From an uncultured Planctomycetales bacterium (GTDB taxonomy: Bacteria; Omnitrophota; Gorgyraeia; Zapsychrales; CAZBRU01), in the NCBI GenBank assembly GCA_964515035.1, contig CAZEUO010000006.1, forward strand, positions 10,103-74,102: DNA of 64,000 bases, read 5' to 3'. The notes under the pieces are model-generated. The model was not told the DNA's origin. It saw only the letters and a list, made by a program, of their open reading frames with translations, and did not search any database. The position numbers were made by a program, and so were the translations under genes. Shown here one piece after another: positions 1,734-26,232 of this stretch (within the stretch, counting starts at the first letter, position 1; each line of letters begins with the position of its first letter).

Positions 1734-1816
1734 AAAGTATGTGAGTAAATTTTAGTCAGGTCAAAGTTTTCGATTGTCACTCACAGGGCGGGTGTTATAA
1801 TGTGTAACAATTTGTT

Positions 1817-2014
1817 ATGCAATATAAAATGAAAAAACTAGCCGAAACTTACACAGTCGAAGAAGTCGCGGAAGCTCTCAAGCTTCATCCCTATACCGTG
1901 CGCCGATTATGCAGAGAGGGCAAAATCCCAGGATTTAAATTCGGTGGGCAATGGAGATTTCAGAAAGAATCTATTAATAAATTTGTCAATTTATCAAAGA
2001 TGAAAAAACAATGA
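1817..2014 (+). CDS. small helix-turn-helix DNA-binding protein, excisionase/MerR-like (HTH_17) family; possible controller of the downstream Res-Mod operon
   Basis: 65 aa with the pattern TVEEVAEAL...YTVRRLCREGKIPGFKFGGQWRF, typical of excisionase-family HTH. Its stop overlaps the res start (ATGA). Palindromes lie in the upstream promoter region. Confidence 0.55.
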   Translation: MQYKMKKLAETYTVEEVAEALKLHPYTVRRLCREGKIPGFKFGGQWRFQKESINKFVNLSKMKKQ

Positions 2015-4977
2015 ATTCGCCTATACTTAATTCTCCATATAAAGAACCAAATTTTCATTTTAAATCAGACGAACGGGGACTTACTGACGAAGTTTTAGAA
2101 TTTCGTCGACCTAGTAGCTTTTACATCCCAGTTCCTCGTGCTAAATCAATGAAAAAACGTGCTGAACAGAACGTTGCTGAAGGCGCCTTTGGTAGTGAAT
2201 TACAAAAAGAAAACGAGTTTATTAATAAGGTCAGAGAGAAGATAAAAGAATGGCGAAATAAGGATTATTCAGGGCTTACTAAAACATCAAGAGACTTGCT
2301 TTTCTATTGGAAGGATGAGAGCCGTGACAATAAACTTTTCTTTTGCCAGGTCGAAGCACTAGAAACTTTGATGTACATTAATGAAGTGGCAGAAAAATCG
2401 GGCGAAGTCTGGATTATTAATGAATTGAAAAAAGCAGGCAAAGAAGCAAATCCAGGCCTATATCGAATTGCTTTGAAGATGGCTACTGGTTCTGGGAAGA
2501 CAGTAGTTATGGCAATGATCATTGCATATAACACTCTTAATAAAATTCGATATCCTTTAGACACAAGATTCACAGATGCCTTCGTAATAGTCACTCCCGG
2601 CATTACTATTCGTGATCGTTTAAACGTCTTGCTTCCGAACGATCCTAACAATTATTATCGTAAGCGCGACATTGTTTCTTATCAGGATTTTGAGTTGCTA
2701 CATTCAGCAACGATTTTTATAACAAATTATCATCAACTGGAACTTCGACAGAATCCAAGATTTCAGATTGGCGGAGTTATGAAAGCAACTGGGCTTATTA
2801 AAGAAGAAACAACTAAAGAAATATCATCCGCAATGGTGAATCGAGCCTTCAAAAGTGTTCTTCAAAAAACAAGAATTCTGGTAATTAATGATGAAGCTCA
2901 TCATTGCTATCGCGAGAAACCTCTTGAAGAAAAATTGTCTGGAGAGGATCGCAAAGAGGCTGATGAAAATAATAAAGCCGCACGAGTTTGGATTAATGGG
3001 TTAGAAGCATTGGCAAAAAAATTAAATGTTAATGCATTAATTGATTTGTCAGCGACACCATATTTCTTGCGCGGGTCTGGTTATCAAGAAGGCACTCTTT
3101 TTCCATGGGTCATTTATGATTTTTCTATTCTCGATGCGCTGGAATGTGGTGTTGTTAAGATACCACGACTCCCTGTCAAGTCAGATACCATTACATTGGA
3201 TGATGAACCAGAATTTCGTAATTTGTGGTTATACGTCCGTGATGATCTTCCGAAGAAGGGATTGAAAACAGGAGATTACGATCTTTCTTCATTCGCTTTG
3301 CCTACTAAACTTGCCGCGGCCTTACTTTCTCTCTATGGTAGTTATGAAAAATATTACAGAGAGTACGAAAAACAAAGAAAATTGGACCCGAATGTTATGC
3401 CTCCAGTCATGATAGTCGTTTGTAACAATACAACAGTTTCAGAGATTGTTTATCGTTGGATTGCTGGATATGAGCGAGAAACAGCGAGTGGAAAAATAAA
3501 AATTGAGAAAGGTAATCTTGAAATATTTCGCAATGAAGATGGCACCCAATTTTTTGATCGGCCAAATACTCTATTAATTGATAGTGCTCAACTTGAGAGT
3601 GGTGAAAAAATAAACGACGAGTTTAAAAAGATATTTTTGAAAGAGACAGAAGATTTTCACAAAGAATACAAGCGCCGGTTCCCGGGCCGTGATGATCCTA
3701 CTGATGAAGAATTACTTCGTGAAGTTATGAACACTGTTGGTAAACCTGAGAAACTGGGTGAAAATATTAAATGCGTGGTAAGCGTTTCGATGCTTACTGA
3801 AGGCTGGGATGTTAATACGGTGACCCACATTTTAGGAATACGTGCATTTTCTACACAACTTCTTTGTGAGCAGGTCGTCGGTCGGGCTCTTCGACGAATC
3901 GATTACAATATTGATGAAGATACCGGCATGATGACTCCCGAATATGCCGAAGTGTATGGGGTTCCGTTTAGTTTCCTACGAGTTGAAGGCAATGTTACTC
4001 CGCAGCCCCCTAAAGTGTTTCATCGGGTTCGGGGCCTTCCTGAGCGAGAAAAATATGAAATTACTTTTCCACGCGTGGAAGGTTATCGATATGAACTTAA
4101 TGAAACAAAATTGGCGGCTAATTTTACCGAAGAATCAAAAATTATCATTGAGAACGAGCCGATGGAGGTTGTTTCAGAAGGCGTTGTTGGCTATGGGACA
4201 ATAGAAACTTTGGAAAAAATTAAAGAGCGTCGAGAAGGTGAAGTGATTATTCGCCTGACTGAGGGACTTTTGAAGCGTTATTATGTTGATGCCGACGGTA
4301 CTGAAAAATATTGGCTTGGGCCAAAATTACGAAAAATAGTTGAGGAGTTCGTAAAGAATTATATTGTCCTTAAGGATCGTATGGTTATTGGATATTTAAG
4401 TGTTGGCACTTATTTTACAGGCGCACTGACCAAAATTCAGCAAGGAATCATTACTGAAAATATTGCCAATATAGATTCCAAGAAAATTTTACCAATATTG
4501 GTTCCTTACGATACTCTTGGATCTACTCGTTACGTGGATTTTTTGACTACACGGCCTGTGCAAGAAACAATTAAAAGTCACGTGAATTATGTAGTGGCGG
4601 ATACAAAAGAATGGGAGCAGGGAGTTGCCAAGAAACTAGAGCAGATGGAAGAGGTAATTTCTTACGTCAAAAATCAGAATTTAGGGTTTGCCATCCCTTA
4701 TGAACATGAAGGTGTGGCACGTCATTATACGCCGGATTTTGCAGCCAAGATTGAAATGCCTGATAAATCCCTTCTTAATCTTTTGATTGAGGTTACCGGA
4801 AGAAAGGATGATAAAAAAATCATGAAAATAAAAACAACTCGTGAATTTTGGATTCCTGCCGTTAATAACGATGGGCGATTTGGTCAGTGGGCACTTCTTG
4901 AAGTGCAGGATATTCATGAGACCCAAAATTTAATACGAGGTGGATTAAATAAAGGTTTTAATAATTTAGGAAAATAA
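2011..4977 (+). CDS. res: Type III restriction Res-like subunit: SF2 DEAH helicase with C-terminal PD-(D/E)xK-like nuclease region
   Basis: Motif I MATGSGKTVV; motif II VINDEAHH; motif V/VI MLTEGWDV...QVVGRALRR. C-terminal region TPDFAAKIE...LIEVTGRKD is nuclease-like. 988 aa, typical Res length. Stop is 3 nt before the mod start. Confidence 0.7.
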   Translation: MNSPILNSPYKEPNFHFKSDERGLTDEVLEFRRPSSFYIPVPRAKSMKKRAEQNVAEGAFGSELQKENEFINKVREKIKEWRNKDYSGLTKTSRDLLFYWKDESRDNKLFFCQVEALETLMYINEVAEKSGEVWIINELKKAGKEANPGLYRIALKMATGSGKTVVMAMIIAYNTLNKIRYPLDTRFTDAFVIVTPGITIRDRLNVLLPNDPNNYYRKRDIVSYQDFELLHSATIFITNYHQLELRQNPRFQIGGVMKATGLIKEETTKEISSAMVNRAFKSVLQKTRILVINDEAHHCYREKPLEEKLSGEDRKEADENNKAARVWINGLEALAKKLNVNALIDLSATPYFLRGSGYQEGTLFPWVIYDFSILDALECGVVKIPRLPVKSDTITLDDEPEFRNLWLYVRDDLPKKGLKTGDYDLSSFALPTKLAAALLSLYGSYEKYYREYEKQRKLDPNVMPPVMIVVCNNTTVSEIVYRWIAGYERETASGKIKIEKGNLEIFRNEDGTQFFDRPNTLLIDSAQLESGEKINDEFKKIFLKETEDFHKEYKRRFPGRDDPTDEELLREVMNTVGKPEKLGENIKCVVSVSMLTEGWDVNTVTHILGIRAFSTQLLCEQVVGRALRRIDYNIDEDTGMMTPEYAEVYGVPFSFLRVEGNVTPQPPKVFHRVRGLPEREKYEITFPRVEGYRYELNETKLAANFTEESKIIIENEPMEVVSEGVVGYGTIETLEKIKERREGEVIIRLTEGLLKRYYVDADGTEKYWLGPKLRKIVEEFVKNYIVLKDRMVIGYLSVGTYFTGALTKIQQGIITENIANIDSKKILPILVPYDTLGSTRYVDFLTTRPVQETIKSHVNYVVADTKEWEQGVAKKLEQMEEVISYVKNQNLGFAIPYEHEGVARHYTPDFAAKIEMPDKSLLNLLIEVTGRKDDKKIMKIKTTREFWIPAVNNDGRFGQWALLEVQDIHETQNLIRGGLNKGFNNLGK

Positions 4978-4980
4978 ATT

Positions 4981-7452
4981 ATGGGAAGAAAAAAAATAAT
5001 TACTAAAACCACTGAAGCCGCTGCAGTTACATCGTATAAGCATAAAGATAAACGTTCGCGTATTCCCACACAGGAAGAATCCGTTAAGCTTTCTGTCCGG
5101 GAAAAACAACCGGTTAAGAAAAGATACGAATATGAACCTTCACTGGATCCTCAGCTTGTTTGGTCTGGGAAGAAAGAATCCGGATCCGAACTGTCTGTTT
5201 CAACAATACCGATTTATGTTCAGGAAAAGATTGCACCAGAAGCTATCATCGCTCGTTTAAAGCAAGGATCCAAAGACGAAGCGCAATACACATTGTTTGG
5301 TGAAACAACCCAACAGCAGTTTGATAAGGCTGTAGAATTTTATAAGCACGAAGACAATTGGCAAAACCGCATGATTTTGGGAGATAGTCTTTTGGTAATG
5401 AACAGTTTGCTTGAAAAAGAAGGTATGCGTGGCAAGGTACAAACTATTTACATTGACCCGCCTTATGGAATTAAATTCGGTTCCAATTGGCAGACATCAA
5501 CTCGGAAACGTGAAGTGAAGGATAATAAAGTTGAAGATTTGGTTCGCCAGCCAGAGCAAATAAAAGCATTCCGTGATACGTGGGAGTTGGGTATTCATTC
5601 GTATCTTTCTTACTTACGTGATCGTTTAATTACCGCCAGAGAGCTCTTGACAGAAAGTGGATCATGTTTTGTACAAATTTCGGATGAAAATTTACACTTA
5701 ATTAGAAATCTAATGGATGAAGTTTTAGGGAATGAGAATTTTGTAAGTTTAATTACATTCAAAAAAACGAATCCACTAGGTGCTAGTGGATTAGGGGCAG
5801 TTTCTGATTATTTGATATGGTATGCTCGCGATATAAAACGATATAAGTTTAGAAGAATTCTTCTTGAGAAGCATCTTGGTGTTGGTGGAGTTAGTGGTTA
5901 TTCATGGATTGAGTTGCCCAATGGTAACCGACGAAGGCTTACAAGTGATGAATTTAACAATATTGATAAATTACCTAAAGATTGGCGTATTTTTGCGCCT
6001 ACAAAATTAACAGCCGCTGGGTTAACTCCTAGCTGTGTTTACCCTTTTGAATATGAAGGCGTTCGATTTACCCCAAAACAAGGATCAAGTTGGAGAACTA
6101 ATGCAGCAGGCATGGAAAAGTTAATTAGTTTGAAGAGGCTGATACGACTTGGCGATTCAATTTATCAAGTAATGTATTTTGATGATTATCCTGTTACAGA
6201 ATTGACAAATCTTTGGGACGATACTCGGGGAGAAATGGACAAGTGTTATGTTGTGCAAACTGCTACTAGAGTTATAGAGCGCTGTATACTTATGACTACT
6301 GATCCTGGCGACCTTGTTTTTGATCCAACCTGTGGTTCCGGTACAACCGCTTATGTCTCCGAGCAGTGGGGAAGGCGATGGATTACGACCGATACTTCAC
6401 GCGTTGCCCTTGCATTGGCACGTACTCGACTTATGGCCGCTAAATTTTCCTATTACACATTGAAAGATCAAAGTAATGTGCGTTCAGGATTTGAATATAA
6501 AATTGTTCCACATGTAACTTTGAAATCTTTAGCAAATGATGAGGAATCAGAACAAGAAGTCCTTTACGATCAGCCATTCGAAGATAAAGGGAAGGTTCGG
6601 GTATCCGGGCCATTTACAGTCGAGTCTCTTTCTCCCCATCGAGTTTCTGATGCGCAAGAAATGATTTCATCTGAACGATTTGCTGAAACTGTGGTTACCA
6701 ATCTTCTCAAAGCAGGGGTACAAACTGGCGAGAAAGACGCACGCTTAGAGTTCATCAACTTAGATATTTTACCTAGTGGTCCTGAAGTTCAGGCTATTGG
6801 CGAATACAAAACAAAAGATGGATTAAAAAAAATAGCTGTTGCCATTGGTCCTGAATTCGGAAGCGTTGATGATGATTTTATCCGGGATGCGGCTAAAGTA
6901 GCCAAAAAATTTGCCAATCTTTTGGTGGTCGCAGCAACGTCATTTGATGCTTCGGCATTTACCGAGCCTTCACAGATAAATGGTTTACAGATAATGAAAG
7001 TTAAAATTAATCCTGATCTTTCGATGGGTGATTTACTTAAGAAAACGGGCTCAGGCAATCTTTTCTTGGCTTTCGGCGAACCAGAAGTCAGAGTGAAACA
7101 GACAAAAGATGGATTGGTCGTTGAAATTTTGGGCGTGGATGTTTATGACCCAGTCAAAGGTCAAATCCGTTCAAGTGGAGCGGGGAATCCTGAGCATGAC
7201 ATTGCTACCTGGTTTATTGATGCCAATTACAGTGGCGAAGCATTTTTTGTAACGCATGCTTATTTTCTTGGAGAAGACAAACCCTACGAAAAATTAAAGA
7301 AAGCCCTTAAAGCAGATATAAATGAGGACGCGTGGGATACGCTGTATTCAACCGTATCTCGCCCCTTTGCCAAACCCAAAACCGGCAAAATCGCTGTTAA
7401 AGTAATTAATCATTACGGGGATGAAGTAATGAAAGTAATAGAGGTTAAATAA
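4981..7452 (+). CDS. mod: beta-class N6-adenine (or N4-C) DNA methyltransferase, Type III Mod-like, with a ~340 aa C-terminal extension
   Basis: Motif IV IYIDPPYGIKFGSNWQ precedes motif I LVFDPTCGSGTTAYV...GRRWITTD. This order is the beta-class arrangement of Type III Mod. About 290 aa of TRD-like sequence separate them. A long extra C-terminal region follows motif I. Confidence 0.75.
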   Translation: MGRKKIITKTTEAAAVTSYKHKDKRSRIPTQEESVKLSVREKQPVKKRYEYEPSLDPQLVWSGKKESGSELSVSTIPIYVQEKIAPEAIIARLKQGSKDEAQYTLFGETTQQQFDKAVEFYKHEDNWQNRMILGDSLLVMNSLLEKEGMRGKVQTIYIDPPYGIKFGSNWQTSTRKREVKDNKVEDLVRQPEQIKAFRDTWELGIHSYLSYLRDRLITARELLTESGSCFVQISDENLHLIRNLMDEVLGNENFVSLITFKKTNPLGASGLGAVSDYLIWYARDIKRYKFRRILLEKHLGVGGVSGYSWIELPNGNRRRLTSDEFNNIDKLPKDWRIFAPTKLTAAGLTPSCVYPFEYEGVRFTPKQGSSWRTNAAGMEKLISLKRLIRLGDSIYQVMYFDDYPVTELTNLWDDTRGEMDKCYVVQTATRVIERCILMTTDPGDLVFDPTCGSGTTAYVSEQWGRRWITTDTSRVALALARTRLMAAKFSYYTLKDQSNVRSGFEYKIVPHVTLKSLANDEESEQEVLYDQPFEDKGKVRVSGPFTVESLSPHRVSDAQEMISSERFAETVVTNLLKAGVQTGEKDARLEFINLDILPSGPEVQAIGEYKTKDGLKKIAVAIGPEFGSVDDDFIRDAAKVAKKFANLLVVAATSFDASAFTEPSQINGLQIMKVKINPDLSMGDLLKKTGSGNLFLAFGEPEVRVKQTKDGLVVEILGVDVYDPVKGQIRSSGAGNPEHDIATWFIDANYSGEAFFVTHAYFLGEDKPYEKLKKALKADINEDAWDTLYSTVSRPFAKPKTGKIAVKVINHYGDEVMKVIEVK

Positions 7453-7458
7453 ATAATT

Positions 7459-10400
7459 ATGAGTTCAAAATATCCAAGAGGATCCGAATGGCGCAAGTGG
7501 GATTTGCATGCACAAACCGTTCTAGATGATGGTTATATTTCGATAGGGCAATACTTAGAAGAAATAAAAGGAATCTCTCCCGAAAAATATAATGAATTGA
7601 TCAGGAGAGTTGGAACGGAAGATTTGGTGAAGAAATATGATTCCAAAGAGTATTTTTTTACAGATACTCAAGATGATGAAAAAAGAAGAGTAGAAAATTA
7701 TTCAAAATTATTTCTTAATTTTGTCGATATCTTTAATGCCCATATCGGAGTAATTGGAATTACTGATCATAATTATGAAAATCAATATTTATTAGATTGC
7801 TTGGTCCACAAGGCCAGTGATTTTAATTTTCAAGTTGTCCCCGGTGTTGAAATAAATGTTCAGGGTGTTCATATGCTTGTTTATTTTGGCGACAAACCAT
7901 ACCAGAAGACAACATATGCAGAAGGAATCAAAGCATTCTTGAGTAAAATTAATGTTACAAACAGAAAGACGAACAATATCTTAACGGTTTGCAATAAAAG
8001 CTATACGGATGTTATTAATGAAATAAAGGAACTGGAAGCAATCTTAGTTTATCCTCATTGCAATTCTTCCAATGGACTTTTCCAGGAAAGAGGCAAAACT
8101 GACCGAACACATCTCGCTGATCAATTCAATCACCAGAGTTTTAATATTTTACAGTCTAAAAATAAAGAATCCGCAGACACAGTTGTTTCCTATGTCAAAG
8201 CTAGAACAGAATTAAAATCGGGGTTGGTTTTTACTCTTGGAAGCGATGCACGCGCGTTAAAAGATATTTTAAAGCCAGATAAAGATGAGAATTATTGTTG
8301 GATTAAGGCTGATCCAACATTTGAAGGGTTAAAGCAAATCATTTATGAGCCAGATGCGAGAGTTTTTATTGGTAAAGAGCCTGAAATAGAGACTCGCGTT
8401 AGGAGCAATAGAACTAGATATATAAAATCATTATGTATCGGACAGGCTGACAAATATAACGAAGCGCATGGTATATGGTTTAAAGATGAATCCATAGAAT
8501 TTAGTAAGGAACTTGTTGCCATTATTGGGAATAAGGGAAGCGGAAAAAGTGCCATCACCGATATTATTGGGTTGCTTGGTAATAGTCATAATCAGAAATA
8601 TGGGAAACGAGATGGAAGTCGCGAAGAATTATTTTCCTTTCTAAATAAGCAAAAATTCCTAAAGCCGGGTTATGCATCGAATTTTAAGGCAGCATTGCAT
8701 TGGTATGATGGAGAGCCTGCGAAAATGGAATTAGATAAAGAAGTTGATGATAACATTCCAGAGCGCGTTGAGTATTTACCACAAAAATATCTTGAGAAAA
8801 TTTGTGCAAACATAGACGATGATGAATTTCGTGGAAGATTAAACGAGGTTATTTTTGAATATGTTAAAGAGAAATTTGATTATAAAAACCTAGAAGATTT
8901 AATTAAATATTTAACAAGTCAAGCTGATGAGGATATTAAGAATTCAAAGTTCTCTCTTCATGAAAAGAACGAAGAAATTGTTTCTGTAGAGAAAAAACTT
9001 ACAACAGATTACAAAAAGGAAATCGAAGAAAAGATTAAGATTAAAGAAGAAGAAGTTACTGCTCATAAGAAAAATAAACCTCCTCAGAAGAATGAACCAC
9101 CTCGTAACAGCGAAGCCGCAGCTACAGGAGCAGCTCAGATTGCAGATATTGAAACAAAAATCAATGACTTGATTAAGCACATTGATGGTCTTGAAGAGGA
9201 GCAAACAGCTGTTTCCAAGCAGCTTGAAGATCTTAAGCACGCAAAAGAGGCTATATCGAGGCAAGAAACAGTTTTAAAAGATTTGAAGTCTAAATATAAA
9301 TCATTTTTTGACAGTCTTGGTTTAGCGCTTGATGAGGTAATTAAGGTTTCTTTTCATTATGAGAAAATTGAAAAAATCGTAAATGGAAAAAAGACACGTT
9401 TGCAAGAAATTGAAGGTCTTTTGAGAACTGCTGAGGAAATAAATGAACTTGAAGACGATATAGTAATAAATGATGCACAAAGTAAGAGTTTAAGATTACA
9501 GTTAATCCAATTAGAAAATGGAAAGAAAAATATTATTGATCAATTAAGCAAGCCGGAACAAGAATACCAGGAATACTTGAGACAAAATTCAAAATGGGAG
9601 GCTCGCCAAAAAGAACTTGTTGGGGACGAACAGGCTCCGGTGGTTGACACGTCAAATTGGTTAAAACAAGAATTGAAAAATATTGCTGACGCGTATACTC
9701 AGAATCGGGATAGCTTAAGAAAAGAAAGAAAGAAAATCTTGAAGGACATCTTTAGTAAAAAGCAGGCATTAGTTTCGTTTTATAATTCAGTCAAAGAATC
9801 GATTGACAAAGAAATTGGAAAATATAGTGAAGATTTGGGAAGTTACAATATTGCCATTGAAGCCGGATTACGTTTTAATACGTCGTTTTATGACGAGTTC
9901 TTTAAATATATAAATCAAGGTATAAAAGGGAGTTTCTTTGGCACCGAGGATGGTAGAGGCATATTAAAAAACCTTTGTGAAGGTGTTCAGGGTTGGCAAG
10001 ATGAAAAAGATGTTGTTTCAATATTAGAAGACATAACCAATCACTTGGACAATGACCAGAGAAAAGAAGTTTTATCCGATGATCAGGCTAGGGATATTTT
10101 TAAGCAAATGAAGCAAAAGAAAGACCCTGTGGAGTTTTATGATTATCTTTTCGGGTTAGAATTTTTGCAAACAAAATATGATCTAAAAGTTGACGGTAAA
10201 GATCTTAGTCAATTATCTGCTGGAGAAAGAGGGGGATTATTGTTGATATTTTACTTAATGTTAGATAAGAAAGAGATCCCTTTGATTATCGATCAGCCAG
10301 AAGATAATCTTGATAATAAAAGTGTGTATGAAATCCTTGTTACATTTTTAAAACGAGCGAAAAAAAGACGACAAATTATTATGGTTACGCATAACCCCAA

Positions 10401-10596
10401 CTTAGCGGTTGTCGCTGATGCCGAACAAATTATTCACGTCTCAATCAATAAAAAGAATAAGAATGATTTCGATTATTATTCTGGATCAATTGAAAATTTG
10501 GAAATTAATAATCGGGTTGTCGAAATTCTTGAAGGAACTATGCCTGCTTTCAATAATCGAAGATTAAAATATCGTAAATATTCTAATGATAATTAA
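7459..10596 (+). CDS. fusion protein: N-terminal PHP (polymerase/histidinol phosphatase-like) phosphoesterase domain + Rad50/SbcC/SMC-like ABC ATPase with long internal coiled coil
   Basis: PHP-like blocks: WDLHAQT, IGITDHNYEN, VVPGVEINVQGVHM, VYPHCNSSNG, FTLGSDARA. Walker A IIGNKGSGKSAITD. A ~280 aa K/E-rich coiled coil follows. ABC signature LSAGERGG, Walker B PLIIDQPEDNLD, H-loop IMVTHNP. Starts 7 nt after the mod stop. Confidence 0.6.
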   Translation: MSSKYPRGSEWRKWDLHAQTVLDDGYISIGQYLEEIKGISPEKYNELIRRVGTEDLVKKYDSKEYFFTDTQDDEKRRVENYSKLFLNFVDIFNAHIGVIGITDHNYENQYLLDCLVHKASDFNFQVVPGVEINVQGVHMLVYFGDKPYQKTTYAEGIKAFLSKINVTNRKTNNILTVCNKSYTDVINEIKELEAILVYPHCNSSNGLFQERGKTDRTHLADQFNHQSFNILQSKNKESADTVVSYVKARTELKSGLVFTLGSDARALKDILKPDKDENYCWIKADPTFEGLKQIIYEPDARVFIGKEPEIETRVRSNRTRYIKSLCIGQADKYNEAHGIWFKDESIEFSKELVAIIGNKGSGKSAITDIIGLLGNSHNQKYGKRDGSREELFSFLNKQKFLKPGYASNFKAALHWYDGEPAKMELDKEVDDNIPERVEYLPQKYLEKICANIDDDEFRGRLNEVIFEYVKEKFDYKNLEDLIKYLTSQADEDIKNSKFSLHEKNEEIVSVEKKLTTDYKKEIEEKIKIKEEEVTAHKKNKPPQKNEPPRNSEAAATGAAQIADIETKINDLIKHIDGLEEEQTAVSKQLEDLKHAKEAISRQETVLKDLKSKYKSFFDSLGLALDEVIKVSFHYEKIEKIVNGKKTRLQEIEGLLRTAEEINELEDDIVINDAQSKSLRLQLIQLENGKKNIIDQLSKPEQEYQEYLRQNSKWEARQKELVGDEQAPVVDTSNWLKQELKNIADAYTQNRDSLRKERKKILKDIFSKKQALVSFYNSVKESIDKEIGKYSEDLGSYNIAIEAGLRFNTSFYDEFFKYINQGIKGSFFGTEDGRGILKNLCEGVQGWQDEKDVVSILEDITNHLDNDQRKEVLSDDQARDIFKQMKQKKDPVEFYDYLFGLEFLQTKYDLKVDGKDLSQLSAGERGGLLLIFYLMLDKKEIPLIIDQPEDNLDNKSVYEILVTFLKRAKKRRQIIMVTHNPNLAVVADAEQIIHVSINKKNKNDFDYYSGSIENLEINNRVVEILEGTMPAFNNRRLKYRKYSNDN

Positions 10597-10621
10597 TGTA
10601 AGCTAGTTTCTTCCCGCAATC

Positions 10622-11119
10622 GTGGAAATTGAAATGTTTTCGAGAAAAAGAATAGAAGATTATCTTAAGAAAATTGAAAAGAGGTTTTTTATCGCTCCAC
10701 GCCAAAAGTTTAGTTTCTCCGAAAATTGGTTTCAGGAAATACCCTTGGAAGCTGGTATTTACGGTATTTTTAATCAAAATAAACTCATCTATATAGGGGA
10801 AACCGGTTCTCTTCGCGGAAGGATGCGTGATTTGGGAAGAACGGTTAATCATCAATTCCGAAGAAGTGTTGGGAAAAATATGTTCTCTCGTGTAAAAGGA
10901 TTCGAGGAAGCGAGCAGTAGAAAGAAATTTCCTCTTAACATTGAAAAAAAGCTAAATAAATGGATGGAACAAAAACTTGAAATCGCTGTTTTGCCAATTT
11001 TGTTTGGAAGAAAGGAAATTGAAGAATATATCTGTAAAGAATATAAACCAAAATGCAATACACGAGTTAAAAGGGAATGTAGAAAGATAAATGAAAATCA
11101 TCGAAATTTATCACTGTAA
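10622..11119 (+). CDS. GIY-YIG nuclease domain protein (standalone, 165 aa)
   Basis: GIYGIFNQNKLIYIGETGSLRGRMRDL matches the GIY...YIG...R core. Only a 25 nt gap follows the ATPase gene, with no terminator. Start may be GTG at 10622 or ATG at 10634. Confidence 0.6.
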   Translation: MEIEMFSRKRIEDYLKKIEKRFFIAPRQKFSFSENWFQEIPLEAGIYGIFNQNKLIYIGETGSLRGRMRDLGRTVNHQFRRSVGKNMFSRVKGFEEASSRKKFPLNIEKKLNKWMEQKLEIAVLPILFGRKEIEEYICKEYKPKCNTRVKRECRKINENHRNLSL

Positions 11120-11516
11120 TGTTAAAACTAAGCGGAAGCTGCCAATGTTTCTTTCAAGAGTTCGCGCCGGGTTTCCGTCCCCCGCAGATGATTACCTCGA
11201 CAAGAAACTGGACTTAAACGAACATCTGATTAAGCATCCCGCCGCTACTTTTTTTGTCAAAGTCAAAGGCGATTCGATGATAAAGGCGGGAATTAATTCG
11301 GGAGATATTCTGGTAGTTGATCGTTCGCTTGAACCAAAAGATAAGAAAATTGTTGTGGCGATACTAAATGGAGAGTTTACGGTCAAGCGAGTGCGAAAGA
11401 TGAAGGACAAATTATATCTGGTTTCAGAAAATGACGATTATCTGCCTATTGAAATCAAAGATGACGCGGAGTTTGAGATTTGGGGAGTAGTTGCCCATGT
11501 TATCCACTCAGTCTGA
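11091..11516 (+). CDS. umuD: UmuD (S24 LexA-like self-cleaving peptidase, TLS polymerase V accessory subunit)
   Basis: RAGFPSPADDYL...KVKGDSMIKAGINSGDILVVD aligns to the E. coli UmuD cleavage site (CG/FPSP) and the catalytic Ser (GDSM). Lys is in the C-terminal part. The full-length N-terminal arm is present if the start is 11091. Confidence 0.75.
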   Translation: MKIIEIYHCNVKTKRKLPMFLSRVRAGFPSPADDYLDKKLDLNEHLIKHPAATFFVKVKGDSMIKAGINSGDILVVDRSLEPKDKKIVVAILNGEFTVKRVRKMKDKLYLVSENDDYLPIEIKDDAEFEIWGVVAHVIHSV

Positions 11517-12810
11517 CAAAAAAGTTTTTGCCTTAGTTGACTGCAATAGTTTTTACGTTTCCTGCGAAAAAGTTTTTCATCCTTCCGTAAACAACAAGCC
11601 AGTTGTTGTGCTTTCCAATAATGACGGTTGCGCTATCTCACGCTCGAATGAAGCCAAGCGGATCGGTATTGGCATGGGTGCTCCTATATTCAAATGTCAG
11701 GATATTGTTAAACAACATGATGTGAAGGTTTTCTCAGCTAATTTTGTCCTCTATGGCGATATGTCTAATCGGGTTATGGCTGTGCTTTCGAATTTTACAC
11801 CGAATCTTGAAATCTATTCGATTGATGAAGCTTTCCTTTTATTAAACGGCTTTGAACACTTGAATCTTGAGGACTATGCACGCAAGATTAAGGGAGAGGT
11901 TAAAAAACAAACCGGAATCCCTGTCTCAATTGGTGTTGCGCCGACCAAAACTTTGGCGAAAGTTGCTAATCATTATGCCAAAGACCATCCGGAAGCAAAT
12001 GGGGTATTTACCTTAATGGATGATGATAAGATTGAGCGTATCTTGTCACAAACACCGGTTAGAGAGATTTGGGGCATCGGTAAAGAAAAGGCCATATTCT
12101 TGGAACGACACGGCATAAAAACAGCGTTTGAATTACGAAATACCAGTGATGAATGGATCAAGAAACATCTGACTATCGTTACCCTACGCACGGTTTGGGA
12201 ATTAAGAGGAACCCCGTGTTTGTCTCTGGAAAAGGTGCAACCCAATAAGAAAGCCATTGCAACAACCAGAACTTTTGGTTATGAAGTTAATTGTTTGGCG
12301 GAAATGGAAGAGGCGGTCGCGGCGTATGTCAGCCGTTCGGCAGAGAAGTTAAGAAAACAAAAATCACTGGCCAGTTACATTCAAGTGTTTATTGAGACTA
12401 ATCCTTTCAAAGACACGCCTTACTATCGGAATTCAGCCGGAACGGATGTTAATCCACCAACGGCCTACACACCAAGATTGATTGAAGTTGCTAAGGAGCT
12501 TTTAAAACGTATTTACCGAGATGGCTTACGCTATAAAAGCTGTGGAGTCTTTTTAATGAATCTTTGCCCTCAAACGAACGAACAGGATTATTTGTTTGAA
12601 GAAAAATATCAAGGAAGCTCACGAGAAAGGCTCATGCAGATTATGGATCGTTATAATCGCGGTGCTAATAGCGGAAAACTTTTTATGGCCGCTGAAGGGT
12701 TGGGTAAGCCATGGTTTATGAAACAAGCGCATAAATCCAAGCGATTCACAACACGGTGGGACGAACTGTTAACAATAAACCTTGAAAGGAATAAAAATGC
12801 CACCAAGTGA
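11491..12810 (+). CDS. umuC: UmuC / Y-family translesion DNA polymerase V catalytic subunit
   Basis: N-terminus FALVDCNSFYVSCEKVFHP...PVVVLSNNDGCAI is near-canonical UmuC. Overlaps umuD as in umuDC operons. Confidence 0.85.
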   Translation: MPMLSTQSDKKVFALVDCNSFYVSCEKVFHPSVNNKPVVVLSNNDGCAISRSNEAKRIGIGMGAPIFKCQDIVKQHDVKVFSANFVLYGDMSNRVMAVLSNFTPNLEIYSIDEAFLLLNGFEHLNLEDYARKIKGEVKKQTGIPVSIGVAPTKTLAKVANHYAKDHPEANGVFTLMDDDKIERILSQTPVREIWGIGKEKAIFLERHGIKTAFELRNTSDEWIKKHLTIVTLRTVWELRGTPCLSLEKVQPNKKAIATTRTFGYEVNCLAEMEEAVAAYVSRSAEKLRKQKSLASYIQVFIETNPFKDTPYYRNSAGTDVNPPTAYTPRLIEVAKELLKRIYRDGLRYKSCGVFLMNLCPQTNEQDYLFEEKYQGSSRERLMQIMDRYNRGANSGKLFMAAEGLGKPWFMKQAHKSKRFTTRWDELLTINLERNKNATK

Positions 12811-13126
12811 GAGGTCAATGCAAATTGCTGGAAAATTCTCTGAATATGCAAAATCTGGTGACGATGCTTTAATACAAAATTTTACGGAAAATGAAATTAA
12901 GTTAACATTAATACAATATGCGCAAGATAAGAGATTTCCTCATTACAGTGCAATGGAAATGCAATTGCAAAAACTACAAGAACAAAAAAGAGAGTTATTA
13001 AGCCAGAATGAAAGAGAAGCAGAAAGGAAAGAAGGCTATAAAAATGGATTGATTACAGGCATTATTAGCGGTGTAATTGGTGGGATTATTTTAGCTGTAA
13101 TTTTGAAATTATTGGGATTAGGATAA
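12782..13126 (+). CDS. hypothetical small protein with C-terminal transmembrane helix
   Basis: 114 aa with coiled-coil-like middle and hydrophobic C-terminus GLITGIISGVIGGIILAVILKLLGLG. No recognisable family. Confidence 0.3.
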   Translation: MKGIKMPPSERSMQIAGKFSEYAKSGDDALIQNFTENEIKLTLIQYAQDKRFPHYSAMEMQLQKLQEQKRELLSQNEREAERKEGYKNGLITGIISGVIGGIILAVILKLLGLG

Positions 13127-13128
13127 TT

Positions 13129-13791
13129 ATGTGCGGACGATATTCACAAACAAAATCCAAGCAGGATATTAAAAAGCGGTTCAATCTTAAGAAAGTCCCG
13201 GATGAAATGGGACCCCTTTTTAATATTGCGCCAGATTCAAATGTGCCAGTTATCTTAAATGAATCATCAGATGAAATAACTTTGGCAAGATGGGGGCTTG
13301 TGCCTTCATGGTCAAAAGAGGAGGAGTCACCTTATAGTATGATAAACGCAAGGGCAGAGACAATCTTAGAAAAGCCTTCCTACAAAAGGCTGATTAAAAA
13401 TAAACGCTGTTTGATCATTGCCGATTCGTTCTACGAATGGAAAAAAGTAAAAGGTAAAAAATTCCCTCACAGGATCATGCTTGAAAGCGAAGACTTATTC
13501 GCTTTTGCAGGATTATGGGATCTCTGGGAAGGAAATGGCAATTCCTTAATTAGCTGTTCCATTATTACTACGACCCCCAATAAGCTTTGTGTTACGATTC
13601 ATGACAGGATGCCAGTCATTTTGCCAAGAGAAAGAGAGAAAGACTGGCTGTCTGATATTACCGTTGAGGATGCCATTAAACTTCTTCAACCCTGCGCCGA
13701 TGGCATGAAATGCTGTGAAATTTCCTTAAAAATCAACAATCCTCAAAACAATTCTCCCGACGTGATTTTACCGTTCAAAAGCCAACCTTAA
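13129..13791 (+). CDS. SOS-response-associated peptidase (SRAP/YedK family), abasic-site DNA-protein crosslinking protein
   Basis: Begins MCGRYS (invariant Cys2 nucleophile of SRAP). About 220 aa, with the WGLVPSW motif. Confidence 0.85.
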   Translation: MCGRYSQTKSKQDIKKRFNLKKVPDEMGPLFNIAPDSNVPVILNESSDEITLARWGLVPSWSKEEESPYSMINARAETILEKPSYKRLIKNKRCLIIADSFYEWKKVKGKKFPHRIMLESEDLFAFAGLWDLWEGNGNSLISCSIITTTPNKLCVTIHDRMPVILPREREKDWLSDITVEDAIKLLQPCADGMKCCEISLKINNPQNNSPDVILPFKSQP

Positions 13792-13946: not shown

Positions 13947-14687
13947 ATGGATCGTATCCCTCAAAAATTACTGATTCTTAAGTTTATTGTCGAACAAGGC
14001 GTTGTAACCTTAGAGGACATTAAACAATTCCTGAATATTCCCAATGATTCCGGTTCTATCCGGGTTTCTCTTTATCAGCTGGGAATCTCTCACATAAAAT
14101 ACGGAAAAATACCTCATGGTGTCTGGTATGTCAGTAATTCACAGTCTATTGAATTGCTAAGGACATATTTCAGGGAATTACCGCAATTTCCCATCCGCAG
14201 GATTCATCTCCATTTGGTCCCGCACTCTTTGGGGATGAACCGAATCCGCATTATTCTACAAAAAAGCCAAAACATAAAAGTTAGCGCGTGGTGGTCAGAA
14301 CATTATATCCGCGCCCTTACCCCGGATATGCGTTTTGGGATTTTGATGTCTAAAATCCCGGATGCTATCTTCTGGCGTGATCGTTGTAACGGAACGCAAC
14401 AAAAATTCTTTTTGGAATACGAAAGAACCTTAAAAAGTAAAGCCAGATATATGGACCTTTTTCGATATTACTCTCAACGTAACGACGTATTAAACCGTAA
14501 TGTTATTTATATTTGCGAAAACGATACGATCAAAACCGAACTGGAAAAAATTGAACAATTTTTAGTCAAGTCAGGAAGGATGGAAAGTACCGGGCTTTAT
14601 TTCCAATTTATTACTTTTGAAAAATTCTGCCTTCAATATTCAATCCAAAACCCAATTCAAAAGGAGGAAGAGGTATGCGTAAATTAA
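13947..14687 (+). CDS. hypothetical winged-helix-like protein, first gene of the transfer block; possible relaxosome/replication-relaxation-type component
   Basis: 246 aa. N-terminal region resembles wHTH. Contains the His-rich segment RRIHLHLVPH (HUH-like). No confident family assignment. Confidence 0.3.
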   Translation: MDRIPQKLLILKFIVEQGVVTLEDIKQFLNIPNDSGSIRVSLYQLGISHIKYGKIPHGVWYVSNSQSIELLRTYFRELPQFPIRRIHLHLVPHSLGMNRIRIILQKSQNIKVSAWWSEHYIRALTPDMRFGILMSKIPDAIFWRDRCNGTQQKFFLEYERTLKSKARYMDLFRYYSQRNDVLNRNVIYICENDTIKTELEKIEQFLVKSGRMESTGLYFQFITFEKFCLQYSIQNPIQKEEEVCVN

Positions 14688-14968
14688 ACAAATTGTTTAA
14701 TTCAAGGATAGGCAAGTGTTTGATGATTTTGGGTCTGTTATGTGTTTTAACCACATCTGCCTGGGCCGACCTTGAAAGCGGCATGGAAGAGCTTCAGTCA
14801 AAGATATTCAACATTTCGACGCCTTTGGCGATCATCTTCCTGATTATTGCCGCATGGCAAAAGGCAATGGGCAATGACACGCTTTTTTTCGCGTCTCTCG
14901 TGGGGACGATCATCATGTTTGCCGCGCCTCAGATTGTGCAATTCATAAGTGCGTCATTTGGAGGTTAA
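14675..14968 (+). CDS. VirB2/TrbC-like T4SS pilin
   Basis: 97 aa with signal-like N-terminus and two hydrophobic segments (LAIIFLIIAAW; LVGTIIMFAAPQIV). Sits immediately before VirB3/B4. Confidence 0.5.
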   Translation: MRKLNKLFNSRIGKCLMILGLLCVLTTSAWADLESGMEELQSKIFNISTPLAIIFLIIAAWQKAMGNDTLFFASLVGTIIMFAAPQIVQFISASFGG

Positions 14969-14971
14969 CTT

Positions 14972-17779
14972 ATGCGTAATTTCAGCGAACGATGCTTAAG
15001 GAATCTGCAAGATAGGATGATAATCCTCGGCTTTGAAGGTTGGGATATCTTTATCGTGATTGGCACAGCTTTAATTCTGCAATCCTTCCATATCCATAAT
15101 CTTGTTCTTTGGTTGACAATCGGCGCAACCGGAGGTTTCCTCTATTTTATCAAACGGGGTAAACCGCCGAATGCCACGGAACATTTTGTTGACTGGTTTT
15201 TAAAGGAAAAACGTTTTACGGCAATTCCGCAAATCATCGGCGAATCATTAAAAGGAAGGCCGTTAGATATCAAACTCAATTCATTGCAAACCTTATTGCC
15301 CTATGGGCACTTGGAAGATAACTATTTAATATTCTGCGACGATTCCCTTTCGGTCAGTTATGAAATCAGCTGTCCGCCACTGGATAATCTTTCCAATGAC
15401 GAACTAATTGCCTATTCCCAGCGTATCGAAACTTTTTTAAACAGTTTAACCGATAAGGCTACTTACCAGATTTTCTTTACTCTCGATAGCAATTATCAAA
15501 AGGAAATTGAGGAGCATAAAGCCATTAAGTCGACGCACCCCTTGATTAAGATCATGCACAGCCAAAGAATCGAGAAATTCGAAGAACTGCAAAAACAGAA
15601 AGTCTTAAGGCGAAGGCGTTGTTTTCTATTTGTTAATTACGCCGGTTCTAAGGCTAATCAGAAAAAAATAAGCCTATTAAATAAGTTTAAACAAAGCCGG
15701 AAACTGATCAATGAAGATGTCGATCTCTTGAAACGTGACCTGACCTTTATCCTTCAGCCCATCGAGGACAGCATAAAGGCGGCTGGATTTAGTTTTAAGC
15801 GGTTGTCGCAAGATGAAATCATGGCCTTGATTTACAAATATTTGAATCCGGATCGAGAGAAACAAGGTTTGCTATGCGCCAGGCTAAAGGACAGCCAAAT
15901 GTTTGGCCGGCAGGTTTGCTGTTCAGACTTATTGATAGATGAAAACAAAGGGGAATACCTGCATTTTGGCGGCTTTTACCATAAATACATTACCTTAAAA
16001 GTCCTTCCGGAAACAACCGAGCCCGGGATGTTGGCCTATCTGTCCCAACTATCTTTCTCGGAATTCGATGTGATTGTCAATTTTGAGGCACCGGCCAAAG
16101 AATGGGGGCGAAAGAAAATCGAATCCATGCGAAAGCGCGAATACGGCAACATGGTCGGCCTCTTTAATATCGTCAATAAAGACGCCCAAACAAAAGTCGC
16201 CCAGTATGAAACGCTTCTTGAGGAAACCCAACAAAATAATCAAAAACTTTTCCGTATGCAGCTGACTCTGCATGTTTACGGTGAGGAAATGGAGGATGTT
16301 AAGAAAAAGACTGTTGAAGTTATCCGTATATTTTCCAGCCTTAACGGCGCGGAAATGCATGATGAACGCTGGGGCGCGGTTAAACCGATATTTCTAGGGA
16401 CCTTGCCCGGATGGACCAAAGAATCATCGAGGTGGTTATTGTTGAAATCCCTTCATTTGGCGGATTTTTTGCCGTTTTTCTCCGAATTTAAAGGGAGCGG
16501 ATCGGCACAATGCCTATTCTTTAATACAACTCAAGGCTTGGCCTCTTATGATCCGTTTTCGGAGGAATTGACCGCTTTTAATACCGTAGTTGTAGGCGCA
16601 TCGGGGAGCGGAAAAAGCTTCACCATCAATCAAATTATCAATCAATACAGCAAAAACGACCCCGTGGAAATATTTATCGATATTGGTGGTTCATACAAGC
16701 GTCAAGTCATCTTAAAAAACGGCGAGTATATCAACTTAGGCCTAAAAGAGAAATTCACCATCAATCTTTTTGATTTATCAAAGAATAAGCGGTTTAGAGA
16801 TTTTAACGAAGAGGAACAAAACGAAATCCTTATCATTAAGACCAAAACCATTGCCCAAATGATGGGTGGGCTGGCTCGATTTAAAGAATCCGACCAAATA
16901 GTGGAAGATTTTATCTTTCGAAGCGTTGCCTTTCTGTATGAAAGAGTTGACTATCCCATCTTAAGCGATCTTAAGGAAGTTTTGAAATCCGTATCCCAAA
17001 ACAACAAACAATTACAGCCGTTTCTTGAGCCGGTTATCGGGTTGTTGGGAATCTGGTTTAAAGGCGGGCAGTATGGCAATTACACCGATGGCCCTTCGAC
17101 AATATCCTTAGATAACAGCGTTATTTGTTTTGATTTAAAAGGCCTTAGTCAATTCGAAAGGCTTCAGGCGGTCATGCTGACTATCGTAACAAACTTTATT
17201 TGGGGAAAAATCATGAGTGAGCCCGGGCGCCGCAAATTCGTTATTTTCGATGAGTGCTGGAAACTACTTAGTACCCCGGAAGCGGCCACTTTTATCGCCG
17301 AATGCTACCGAACCTTTCGAAAATACGGCGCAGGGGCCATTTCGGTCACTCAATCTTTAAGCGACTTTTTGGGATGCGGCTTGGAAGATGCCATACTGGG
17401 CAATTCCAATACGCGATTTATTCTGCGCCAAAATTCTGCTCCCACGGTTGAACAGATTATTAAATACTTCAACTTTAATGAACAGGAGAGAAGGCTTGTT
17501 GAATCTCTACAGATTAAAAAAGGTGAGTATTCGGAAGTCTTTTTCTCGCAATCCAAGGAGTTAAAAAACATCAGCGCCAAGATGGTGATCTGGCCTACGC
17601 CGATTGAATATTGGGTTGCGACAACCGATTCGAGAGATTTGGGCCATTATGAAAATACCAGACAGCGGTTTCCGAAACTGAACTTGTACGAATCATTACA
17701 AAAATGCGCAAAAGAATTTCCGCATGGTGTTGGAAATTCAACATTCATTCAAGAAGGGGGGCCAAATGCGTTCATTTAA
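14972..17779 (+). CDS. virB4: VirB3::VirB4 fusion, T4SS ATPase (TrbE/CagE family)
   Basis: N-terminal two-TM VirB3-like segment. Walker A VVVGASGSGKSF. Walker B FVIFDECWKLL. 935 aa. Confidence 0.85.
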   Translation: MRNFSERCLRNLQDRMIILGFEGWDIFIVIGTALILQSFHIHNLVLWLTIGATGGFLYFIKRGKPPNATEHFVDWFLKEKRFTAIPQIIGESLKGRPLDIKLNSLQTLLPYGHLEDNYLIFCDDSLSVSYEISCPPLDNLSNDELIAYSQRIETFLNSLTDKATYQIFFTLDSNYQKEIEEHKAIKSTHPLIKIMHSQRIEKFEELQKQKVLRRRRCFLFVNYAGSKANQKKISLLNKFKQSRKLINEDVDLLKRDLTFILQPIEDSIKAAGFSFKRLSQDEIMALIYKYLNPDREKQGLLCARLKDSQMFGRQVCCSDLLIDENKGEYLHFGGFYHKYITLKVLPETTEPGMLAYLSQLSFSEFDVIVNFEAPAKEWGRKKIESMRKREYGNMVGLFNIVNKDAQTKVAQYETLLEETQQNNQKLFRMQLTLHVYGEEMEDVKKKTVEVIRIFSSLNGAEMHDERWGAVKPIFLGTLPGWTKESSRWLLLKSLHLADFLPFFSEFKGSGSAQCLFFNTTQGLASYDPFSEELTAFNTVVVGASGSGKSFTINQIINQYSKNDPVEIFIDIGGSYKRQVILKNGEYINLGLKEKFTINLFDLSKNKRFRDFNEEEQNEILIIKTKTIAQMMGGLARFKESDQIVEDFIFRSVAFLYERVDYPILSDLKEVLKSVSQNNKQLQPFLEPVIGLLGIWFKGGQYGNYTDGPSTISLDNSVICFDLKGLSQFERLQAVMLTIVTNFIWGKIMSEPGRRKFVIFDECWKLLSTPEAATFIAECYRTFRKYGAGAISVTQSLSDFLGCGLEDAILGNSNTRFILRQNSAPTVEQIIKYFNFNEQERRLVESLQIKKGEYSEVFFSQSKELKNISAKMVIWPTPIEYWVATTDSRDLGHYENTRQRFPKLNLYESLQKCAKEFPHGVGNSTFIQEGGPNAFI

Positions 17780-18173
17780 ATATTTGTTATTAGCCTTAAT
17801 ACTTCCGGTACTTATTGGTTGTGCTAACAAACTGGCTTACGTTTCAACCGGAAGCCTCATTGGAGCCGGGGGCGGGTATGCCATTGACCGTGACAGCAAG
17901 GACGCTGCTATTGGCGGGTTAGTTGGGGGAACGACCGGAGCCATACTAGCAGACATCCATAAAAAAAGTGAAAATAAAAAGTACCAAGATGGTTACGATC
18001 AAGGGTATACCCAAGCCCAGCTTGAAATTGCTAAAAGTAACTGGGATGAAAATACCGGCAAACAAAAGAAGGATGTTACTTCAAAATCTTATGAGCGGAT
18101 TAAAATCCCTAAAAAAGAAGTCAATGATGTGCTCTATGATTCGCATTATGAAACGCTGGAGGTGTACAAATGA
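17766..18173 (+). CDS. lipoprotein with glycine-zipper motif (possible VirB7-like / T4SS-associated)
   Basis: Lipobox LIGC after signal peptide. GSLIGAGGGYAID...GGLVGGTTGAILA glycine zipper. The upstream ORF start (17724) overlaps virB4, so the 17766 ATG is preferred. Confidence 0.45.
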   Translation: MRSFKYLLLALILPVLIGCANKLAYVSTGSLIGAGGGYAIDRDSKDAAIGGLVGGTTGAILADIHKKSENKKYQDGYDQGYTQAQLEIAKSNWDENTGKQKKDVTSKSYERIKIPKKEVNDVLYDSHYETLEVYK

Positions 18174-18895: not shown

Positions 18896-18899
18896 AGCT

Positions 18900-22206: not shown

Positions 22207-22220
22207 GGGAGGATAAATCA

Positions 22221-22502
22221 ATGCGAACGATAGCGCTACTAACCGCGTGTATTTTATTTTCTGGATGTGCGACTTATGGTTCATTGCCGTTTATAAAAGC
22301 AACGGATCAACAGCCGTCTGTAGAAACTGAAACCGTATGGGTAAACGCAAAAACAAAGAAGATTTGGATTAATCCGCATGTCGATGACGAAGGCAATATG
22401 GTCGAAGGGCATTATAAATTTATTGTTTTGGAGAAAGGCCATTGGGCCTTACAGGAAATTGCTCCGGAAAACACAATTACGAATAAATCGGAAGGCAAAT
22501 GA
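22221..22502 (+). CDS. small lipoprotein (possible VirB7-like)
   Basis: Lipobox LFSGC. 93 aa. Located between VirB10 and VirD4. Confidence 0.4.
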   Translation: MRTIALLTACILFSGCATYGSLPFIKATDQQPSVETETVWVNAKTKKIWINPHVDDEGNMVEGHYKFIVLEKGHWALQEIAPENTITNKSEGK

Positions 22503-24211: not shown

Positions 24212-24225
24212 GGAAAGGGACTAAA

Positions 24226-24988: not shown

Positions 24989-25010
24989 TAAAATCAATTA
25001 ATGAAAAGAG

Positions 25011-26210: not shown

Positions 26211-26232
26211 GATTATTAGTGTTATAATTTTC

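Follow-up and report, generated by a model that had tools for sequence, protein, structure and literature searches.

Classical Type III restriction-modification (R-M) systems, such as EcoP1I and EcoP15I, combine a beta-class N6-adenine methyltransferase (Mod), which carries the specificity in a central target-recognition domain (TRD), with a helicase-like ATPase (Res) that ends in a C-terminal PD-(D/E)xK nuclease, and their genes are arranged mod then res. Their cleavage of DNA requires ATP and a pair of unmodified sites in inverse orientation. Ppl, which Gao and colleagues reportedly described in 2020, is said to be a single-gene anti-phage protein made up of a PHP domain and an ATPase. In SbcCD and Mre11-Rad50 a long antiparallel coiled coil interrupts the ABC-type ATPase head, and this head is coupled to a metal-dependent phosphoesterase, and in Lamassu (LmuB with the effector LmuA) and Wadjet (JetC) SMC-like ATPases sense DNA and license a nuclease. 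Moreover, defences with ABC-type ATPases are embedded in R-M, BREX and Hma loci, PrrC being the classic case, and such embedding can be explained by co-transfer or by a "genomic sink" without functional interaction (bioRxiv 10.1101/2024.01.29.577857). Here we analyzed a stretch of 64,000 nucleotides from an uncultured Planctomycetales bacterium (contig CAZEUO010000006.1; the whole stretch is referred to as the window), in which five genes encode, in this order, a small helix-turn-helix (HTH) protein, a Res, a Mod, an ATPase of the TrlF family and a small GIY-YIG nuclease. The locus consists of already named families, namely the BPTD_3080 R-M family and the TrlF family, together with an orphan GIY-YIG gene, and it lies on an integrative conjugative element (ICE). 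The explanation that we prefer, with moderate confidence, is a modular defence cluster in which three units stand side by side: a Type III-like R-M system, a TrlF module that resembles Ppl and is autonomous, and the orphan GIY-YIG gene.

An earlier reading of this DNA, made from the letters alone (hereafter the sequence-only reading), had proposed that the five genes form a composite and possibly undescribed defence system. The conservation of the genes speaks otherwise. We sampled 84 loci of the BPTD_3080 family (L082-L165; four from plasmids and 80 from metagenomes) and, from species-representative genomes, 80 loci with TrlF. None of the 84 Res loci has a homologue of TrlF or GIY-YIG in its flanks, and only one of the 80 TrlF loci, from an uncultured gammaproteobacterium (L003), shows Res, Mod and TrlF in the same order. 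The three proteins of L003 are 71%, 66.5% and 44% identical to those of the window, respectively, and this locus lacks both the HTH gene and the GIY-YIG gene. The combination of HTH, Res, Mod, TrlF and GIY-YIG was found nowhere else among the sampled loci, and the two largest proteins already have names in NCBIfam (BPTD_3080 and TrlF).

The DNA homology to the closest relatives gives the same picture. For the closest TrlF (L001, 82% identity), it is limited to positions 7468-10597 of the window; this locus contains no Res gene and no GIY-YIG homologue, and an unrelated methyltransferase gene lies nearby. For the closest Res loci (L086-L090, 74-80% amino acid identity), it is limited to 2005-7451, minus the variable TRD, and no TrlF is present in them. 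The breakpoints coincide with the boundaries of modules or open reading frames (ORFs). Since homology ends at ORF boundaries and the composite is absent from the other loci sampled, we regard its parts as independently mobile modules, so that the apparent new composite breaks down into a series of separable units that belong to named families.

As to the first of these modules, Res matches the NCBIfam model of the BPTD_3080 family (NF046055) with 1086.1 bits against a cut-off of 800, over residues 2-975 and profile positions 2-966 of 970, and it is also matched by Pfam ResIII. Its motifs (GSGKT160, DEAH294, SAT347, QxxGRxxR621 and a C-terminal PDF908...EVT...K) verify the earlier statement that the protein carries all SF2 DEAH motifs and a C-terminal PD-(D/E)xK-like segment. 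The match to Pfam RE_endonuc is sub-threshold (16.3 bits vs 23.4), and the PADLOC REase_III models align to a stretch of just 45 residues (584-628, 26 bits). Mod matches Pfam N6_N4_Mtase with 103.8 bits and the PADLOC model MTase_III (PDLC03632) with 732.7 bits, and it is of the beta class, as had been noticed before, because DPPY159 precedes the S-adenosylmethionine (AdoMet) motif. Its variable target-recognition region, at about 5746-6247, is marked by a gap in the DNA homology to relatives.

The gene order of the pair had been described as inverted; in the BPTD_3080 family it is the norm. Mod is detectable in 71 of the 84 loci, and in 70 of these 71 res is followed by mod (the exception is L148). 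Members of this family share an SF2 DEAH helicase with a C-terminal PD-(D/E)xK nuclease, the order res then mod, and a large beta-class Mod with a variable central TRD, and the window differs from them in nothing essential. Its res and mod stand without inserted genes, whereas in many pairs the two are separated by unrelated genes over 0.4-3.8 kb, which makes the R-M family itself a frequent host of embedded genes. A UPF0175/DUF3368 gene pair lies between res and mod on plasmid pAQ5 of Picosynechococcus PCC 7002. The gene after mod also differs among the loci and includes a UvrD-like helicase annotated as 3'-5' exonuclease, CBASS genes and hypothetical proteins; TrlF and GIY-YIG in this position were seen in no other sampled member. 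Compared with classical Type III systems, Mod and Res have the same architecture, but the gene order is reversed and Res does not reach the Type III endonuclease models. Judged by profiles and motifs, Res and Mod are thus assigned to the BPTD_3080 family as a two-gene Type III-like R-M system. We found no paper on BPTD_3080, including on the origin of this name.

The second module, the TrlF protein, matches the NCBIfam model of TrlF family AAA-like ATPases (NF045780) with 578.8 bits against a cut-off of 350, over residues 87-1039 and profile positions 33-944 of 944. More than 6,000 hits make this a very large family. The sequence-only reading had been reminded of Ppl, and the relatedness is borne out by partial hidden Markov model matches over the PHP region and the C-terminal head (NCBIfam NF042955, 114.5 bits; PADLOC PDLC02208, 79.9 bits). 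In both, one polypeptide combines an ABC-type ATPase with a PHP-type domain at its N-terminus. However, we rejected membership in Ppl itself, whose cut-off of 1000 bits is far above the score obtained: TrlF is a separate NCBIfam family, and the TrlF of the window has altered PHP ligands. Literature searches on TrlF returned no paper on the protein, and the trl names that were found are those of tropolone biosynthesis or spectroscopy acronyms.

Several elements of the architecture proposed earlier for this protein were recovered, namely Walker A (357-364), the coiled coil, the ABC signature (LSAGE 919), Walker B (942-949) and the H-loop (976-978), while its PHP domain was not detected by Pfam. 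The full-length AlphaFold model has a mean predicted local distance difference test score (pLDDT) of 66.9 and contains a helical coiled-coil insertion of about 310 residues (478-790, pLDDT about 80-90) that splits the ATPase lobes. Its best fold matches in the PDB are an SMC head with coiled coil, Rad50, MukB, JetC, RecN and LmuB, and its N-terminus is matched by PHP proteins. The description as an ABC/SMC-type ATPase with a helical coiled-coil insertion, fused to an N-terminal PHP-fold domain, is essentially right.

Several known ATPases invite comparison. TrlF resembles SbcCD and Mre11-Rad50 in its split ABC head and its coupling to a phosphoesterase-type domain, but this domain is PHP-fold and lies in cis instead of being of the Mre11-type calcineurin-like fold (Metallophos), there is no CxxC zinc hook, and the score of 19 bits with the Rad50 model falls short of its cut-off of 700. 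A separate calcineurin-like Metallophos gene (Mre11/SbcD-type) follows TrlF relatives in L034, L038, L041 and L049 (Mesorhizobium, Geobacter). LmuB and JetC are among the fold matches and also among the weak PADLOC matches of TrlF. The sequence similarity to them is confined to the ATPase motifs, and unlike Lamassu and Wadjet, TrlF has no kleisin-like or separate effector subunit, its effector domain being fused. The MADS detection model requires MAD6, MAD7 and MAD8 (bioRxiv 10.1101/2023.03.30.534895). We excluded MADS: MAD6 and MAD7 gave no match, the match to mad8 is weak and incidental, and matches to mad1 and mad3 (PADLOC, NCBIfam) are below cut-offs or generic to ABC ATPases; the HTH protein scores 48.7 bits with the NCBIfam MAD1 model (cut-off 80).

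We further focused on the N-terminal domain of TrlF, whose residues 1-304 are encoded at 7459-8370. Pfam gave no PHP match even at E-values up to 10, and a profile search against the PDB returned nothing meaningful. Modelled alone, this domain (about residues 1-305) reached a predicted TM score (pTM) of 0.74, and PHP proteins take all of the first 16 places among its Foldseek matches, with TM scores of only about 0.35 and E = 3e-4. A TrlF relative, P0045, matches PF02811 above threshold and is the only clearly canonical one among the homologues that we classified. The uniform Foldseek matches and this relative support a PHP fold for the predicted domain, although only weakly. We then compared the metal ligands with the canonical set HxH, D/H, E, H, H and DxH, which the protein of the window does not retain in full: HxH is changed to HAQ and DxH to DAR, and TDH104, E131, H138, H200 and D263 are kept. 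Six of the nine canonical positions remain.

These changes are not peculiar to the window. Among the 120 best homologues, 22 (including the TrlF of the window) form a sub-clade, here called Q/R, in which HxH has become QxQ or HxQ and DxH has become DxR. Most of its members read QxQ...DxR, with TDH, E, H, H and D retained, and a confidently modelled helical insert of about 65 residues lies between PHP motifs 1 and 2. This pattern suggests that the PHP site of the sub-clade has been repurposed rather than decayed. Because two canonical PHP ligands are lacking, an autonomous nuclease activity of the TrlF in the window is uncertain, and from its ligand residues the protein may depend on a partner.

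At the family level, TrlF is clearly linked to R-M genes in a non-random manner. Starting from seeds with an existing Pfam annotation, we counted neighbours in 70 loci, with a similar amount of sequence available in each distance band. A homologue of an R-M or methyltransferase gene is present within 6 kb of TrlF in 21 of the 70 loci, always on the strand of TrlF. By distance, such a neighbour lies within 3 kb in 16 loci and between 3 and 6 kb in seven, and the band of 6-10 kb contained none; the count leaves out four additional D12 methyltransferases. Thus the co-localisation of the PHP::ATPase with Res/Mod-type genes, which the sequence-only reading had named as a check of its proposal, was found for the family as a whole, and co-oriented.

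The partners are diverse. Recurrent neighbours are Type I operons of the form hsdM-hsdS-[TrlF]-(SLFN/AlbA_2)-hsdR, methyltransferases of the N6_N4 and D12 kinds, MmeI-like Type IIG enzymes accompanied by a DEAD helicase and a T5orf172 protein, GmrSD, a Type ISP enzyme and one Type II pair; Type III-like systems also occur beside TrlF. TrlF lies between hsdS and hsdR in L018, L021, L029, L037, L040, L047 and L064, which belong to Bacteroidota and other taxa, and a Schlafen/AlbA_2 gene often follows it there. In three distant genomes (L028, L062 and L068) an MmeI-like Type IIG gene, a DEAD/ResIII helicase gene and a T5orf172/MUG113 gene are followed by TrlF, and this four-gene cassette may itself be an uncharacterised system. 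Solitary copies of TrlF also exist, among housekeeping genes in L172 and on Staphylococcus and Vibrio plasmids. In phage genome records we found one C-terminal fragment only. The resemblance to PrrC, RloC and other embedded defences is that an ABC-type ATPase gene lies in or beside R-M operons in the same orientation; the differences are that TrlF has no anticodon-nuclease domain and that its R-M partners are not of Type I only.

The occurrence of TrlF alone, among housekeeping genes and on plasmids, argues that it is autonomous, and the variety of unrelated R-M types beside it speaks against its being part of any single enzyme. We therefore regard the TrlF of the window as an autonomous module and not as a subunit of the R-M enzyme next to it. 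The breadth of its partners fits co-regulation and co-transfer, or a generic synergy through DNA ends, a product that all kinds of restriction have in common. Under our preferred explanation of a modular cluster, the genes would be transcribed as one unit from the promoter in front of the HTH gene, under control of the small HTH regulator. Mod would methylate the host DNA, with its variable TRD determining the site, and Res, as a DEAH translocase with a PD-(D/E)xK nuclease, would cut unmodified incoming DNA. TrlF would bind foreign or broken DNA with ATP-dependent dimerisation of its heads, by analogy with Rad50, SMC proteins, Lamassu LmuB and Wadjet JetC, and would then act on the DNA by means of its PHP domain or of a nuclease that it recruits. 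The repeated arrival of TrlF in or next to R-M operons of many types would be a case of embedding, which would bring co-regulation and co-transfer and possibly a layered defence. The size of the TrlF family and its R-M linkage also suggest that defence-annotation tools are without a dedicated TrlF model.

Several points weigh against this explanation. The DNA homology between L003 and the window crosses the mod-trlF junction, and together with the very short intergenic distances this would also fit a real functional coupling. The case for co-transcription comes only from gene spacing and from the absence of terminators, two canonical PHP ligands of TrlF are altered, and no experiment in the literature shows phage defence by any protein of the TrlF family. 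Functional coupling of the modules is possible, and it may take different forms.

In its loosest form, TrlF would work with whichever R-M system it adjoins, without being bound to any of them. Either its Rad50/SMC-like head would recognise the double-strand ends made by restriction and destroy or sequester them, or TrlF would be a back-up in the style of PrrC and RloC that fires when the R-M enzyme is inhibited. We consider this possible but clearly less probable than the modular cluster. The association between TrlF and R-M genes is sharp, keeps to one strand and depends on distance, the sole common output of the unrelated partners is cleaved unmodified DNA, and Rad50, which binds ends, and LmuB in its DNA-bound form are among the fold matches. 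The position between hsdS and hsdR recurs in at least seven loci from different taxa, Res-Mod-TrlF recurs in L003, and PrrC offers a precedent (bioRxiv 10.1101/2024.01.29.577857). Against this, about two thirds of the sampled TrlF loci have no R-M gene within 6 kb, solitary copies exist, and co-transfer or a "genomic sink" effect can produce embedding as well (same source). In any case, TrlF is a good candidate for testing the cooperation of SMC/Rad50-like sensors with restriction.

A tighter coupling in three layers has, in our estimation, a rather low probability. TrlF would read a product or a state shared by R-M systems, for example unmodified DNA with double-strand ends or an R-M enzyme that is inhibited, and its Q/R-type PHP domain, turned non-catalytic, would serve for docking or regulation and recruit a neighbouring nuclease, here GIY-YIG. 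If true, restriction, an SMC-like sensor and a nuclease would be joined in a kind of system not yet described.

Even without the R-M layer, a pair of sensor and effector, in which the PHP domain of a Q/R TrlF is non-catalytic and serves for docking or regulation and GIY-YIG is the nuclease, appears unlikely. There is a parallel in the alpha subunit of E. coli Pol III, whose degenerate PHP domain docks the epsilon exonuclease, and 4gx8, a chimera of Pol III alpha and epsilon, is the third fold match of the N-terminal model. The ligand change in 22 of the 120 homologues is coordinated and conserved, yet the window TrlF may still be active with its six retained positions. On the side of the nuclease, GIY-YIG matches PF01541 (30.0 bits, cut-off 22.6) and PF20815 (25.4 bits, cut-off 22.4), and Y47, Y57, G59, R65, R67, H77, E132, E134 and N146 are invariant in an alignment of 12 sequences. 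The catalytic residues are thus intact, and the earlier assignment of this gene as a GIY-YIG nuclease holds.

The neighbourhoods are less favourable to such a pair. A tightly spaced co-directional gene stands downstream of TrlF in five of the seven Q/R loci that we examined, but these genes are heterogeneous (GIY-YIG, DUF2130, unknown proteins of 171 and 357 residues, and a Type II methyltransferase), and L003 and L172 have no such gene. Among 5.8 billion sequences, only 12 are homologues of the GIY-YIG protein; the three contexts that we looked at place none of them near TrlF or Res/Mod, and neither L001 nor the other TrlF loci examined gave a conserved GIY-YIG partner downstream of TrlF. DUF2130 follows TrlF in three sampled loci. 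In L166 and L167 a Q/R TrlF has a Type ISP enzyme of 1599 aa on one side and an overlapping DUF2130 gene on the other, beside genes of a type IV secretion system (T4SS), which makes up another conjugative-element defence cluster of the same logic.

The genes downstream of the cluster point to another role, namely that TrlF and GIY-YIG are repair cargo and act on ends or hairpins like SbcCD, together with umuDC and an SRAP (SOS-response-associated peptidase) gene, for the maintenance of the ICE. The contiguity with these genes and the Rad50/SMC-like architecture of TrlF are in line with it; but the TrlF family is linked to R-M genes and defence islands and not to repair genes, TrlF is homologous to the anti-phage protein Ppl, and umuDC was not seen as a recurrent neighbour in the TrlF loci examined, so that we hold this role to be very improbable. 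Least probable of all is the obligate five-gene machine of the original proposal, with HTH, Res, Mod, TrlF and GIY-YIG all required, for in spite of the overlapping or near-abutting genes, the single strong upstream promoter and the lack of internal terminators, the combination recurs neither in the 84 Res loci nor in the 80 TrlF loci, where the one locus with a Res/Mod pair is without HTH and GIY-YIG, and the module-precise breakpoints of homology point to independent assembly.

The positions of the genes and signals are given in Table 1. The five genes are co-directional and near-abutting, as had been stated before: HTH and Res overlap by 4 nt (ATGA), and the gaps that follow are 3 nt between Res and Mod, 6 nt between Mod and TrlF and 25 nt between TrlF and GIY-YIG. 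No terminator-like site was found between the five genes, and such sites within genes are not in excess (15, vs 12.0 +/- 3.6 in shuffled sequences). Based on the spacing and the absence of terminators, the five genes are probably on one transcript, and the earlier description as a co-directional, probably co-transcribed defence cluster is supported by this layout. Within the first 15 kb no other sigma-70-like site scores as high as the predicted promoter, which matches at 11 of 12 positions and is likely the operon promoter. The true start of HTH may be the ATG at 1829, and that of GIY-YIG is probably the ATG at 10634, which gives a protein of 161 residues.

Table 1. Positions of the cluster genes, predicted signals and ICE features in the window
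Feature	Position	Strand	Description
sigma-70-like promoter	1774-1801	+	TTGTCA-16-TATAAT, extended -10; upstream of HTH gene
imperfect inverted repeat	1795-1827		candidate operator; 16-nt arms, 81% complementary; overlaps -10 box and HTH start codon
HTH gene	1817-2014	+	small HTH_17 / excisionase-family DNA-binding protein
Res gene	2011-4977	+	988 aa, BPTD_3080-family restriction endonuclease
Mod gene	4981-7452	+	823 aa, beta-class N6/N4 DNA methyltransferase
TrlF (ATPase) gene	7459-10596	+	1045 aa, TrlF family
GIY-YIG gene	10622-11119	+	small GIY_YIG_2 nuclease, rare orphan family, no conserved partner
umuD-umuC	11091-12810	+	translesion polymerase V; overlap the end of the defence gene string
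ICE backbone	13947-26306		MobC-like gene, T4SS genes, coupling protein, integrase, tRNA genes
VirB4/TraC-like ATPase	14972-17779		part of ICE backbone
coupling protein	22499-24211		part of ICE backbone
tyrosine integrase	25011-26210		abuts tRNA-Met
tRNA-Met	26233-26306		directly after integrase; tRNA-Val also there

The HTH protein matches Pfam HTH_17 with 61 bits and is 66% identical to the HTH protein encoded immediately upstream of TrlF in L001. It is likely the regulator of the cluster. In addition to the inverted repeat over the -10 box, a second repeat (TGTGAGT/ACTCACA) lies at 1740-1746 and 1779-1785, on either side of the -35 box, and the direct repeat TGAGTAAA is present twice within 1740-1827. 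From their position, the repeats in this region are possible operators for the HTH protein.

The string of genes runs past position 11119, where the GIY-YIG ORF overlaps umuD by 29 nt and umuD in turn overlaps umuC. These two genes are outside the defence module, although they may be on the same transcript. The SRAP gene follows them, so that umuD, umuC and SRAP (11091-13791) lie directly downstream of the defence genes. A LexA box, which would separate umuDC from the cluster, gave no match of the E. coli type near umuD, and for this reason transcription from the defence cluster may continue through the three damage-tolerance genes.

The location on a mobile element, which had also been suggested before, is borne out by the T4SS genes, the integrase and the adjacent tRNA-Met. 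The T4SS stretch extends over 14.9-24.2 kb and includes a TrbL/VirB6-like gene. The G+C content climbs from about 0.39 to about 0.45 at the integrase/tRNA end, and housekeeping genes lie beyond tRNA-Met. Because no direct repeat of the tRNA-Met att site is present in positions 1-25000, the left end of the ICE should be outside the window. Searches of annotated plasmids and of E. coli genomes returned no near-identical DNA. Immediately before the cluster and on its strand, a gene at 60-1733 encodes a protein of 557 residues with DUF3857, transglutaminase-core and DUF3858 domains.

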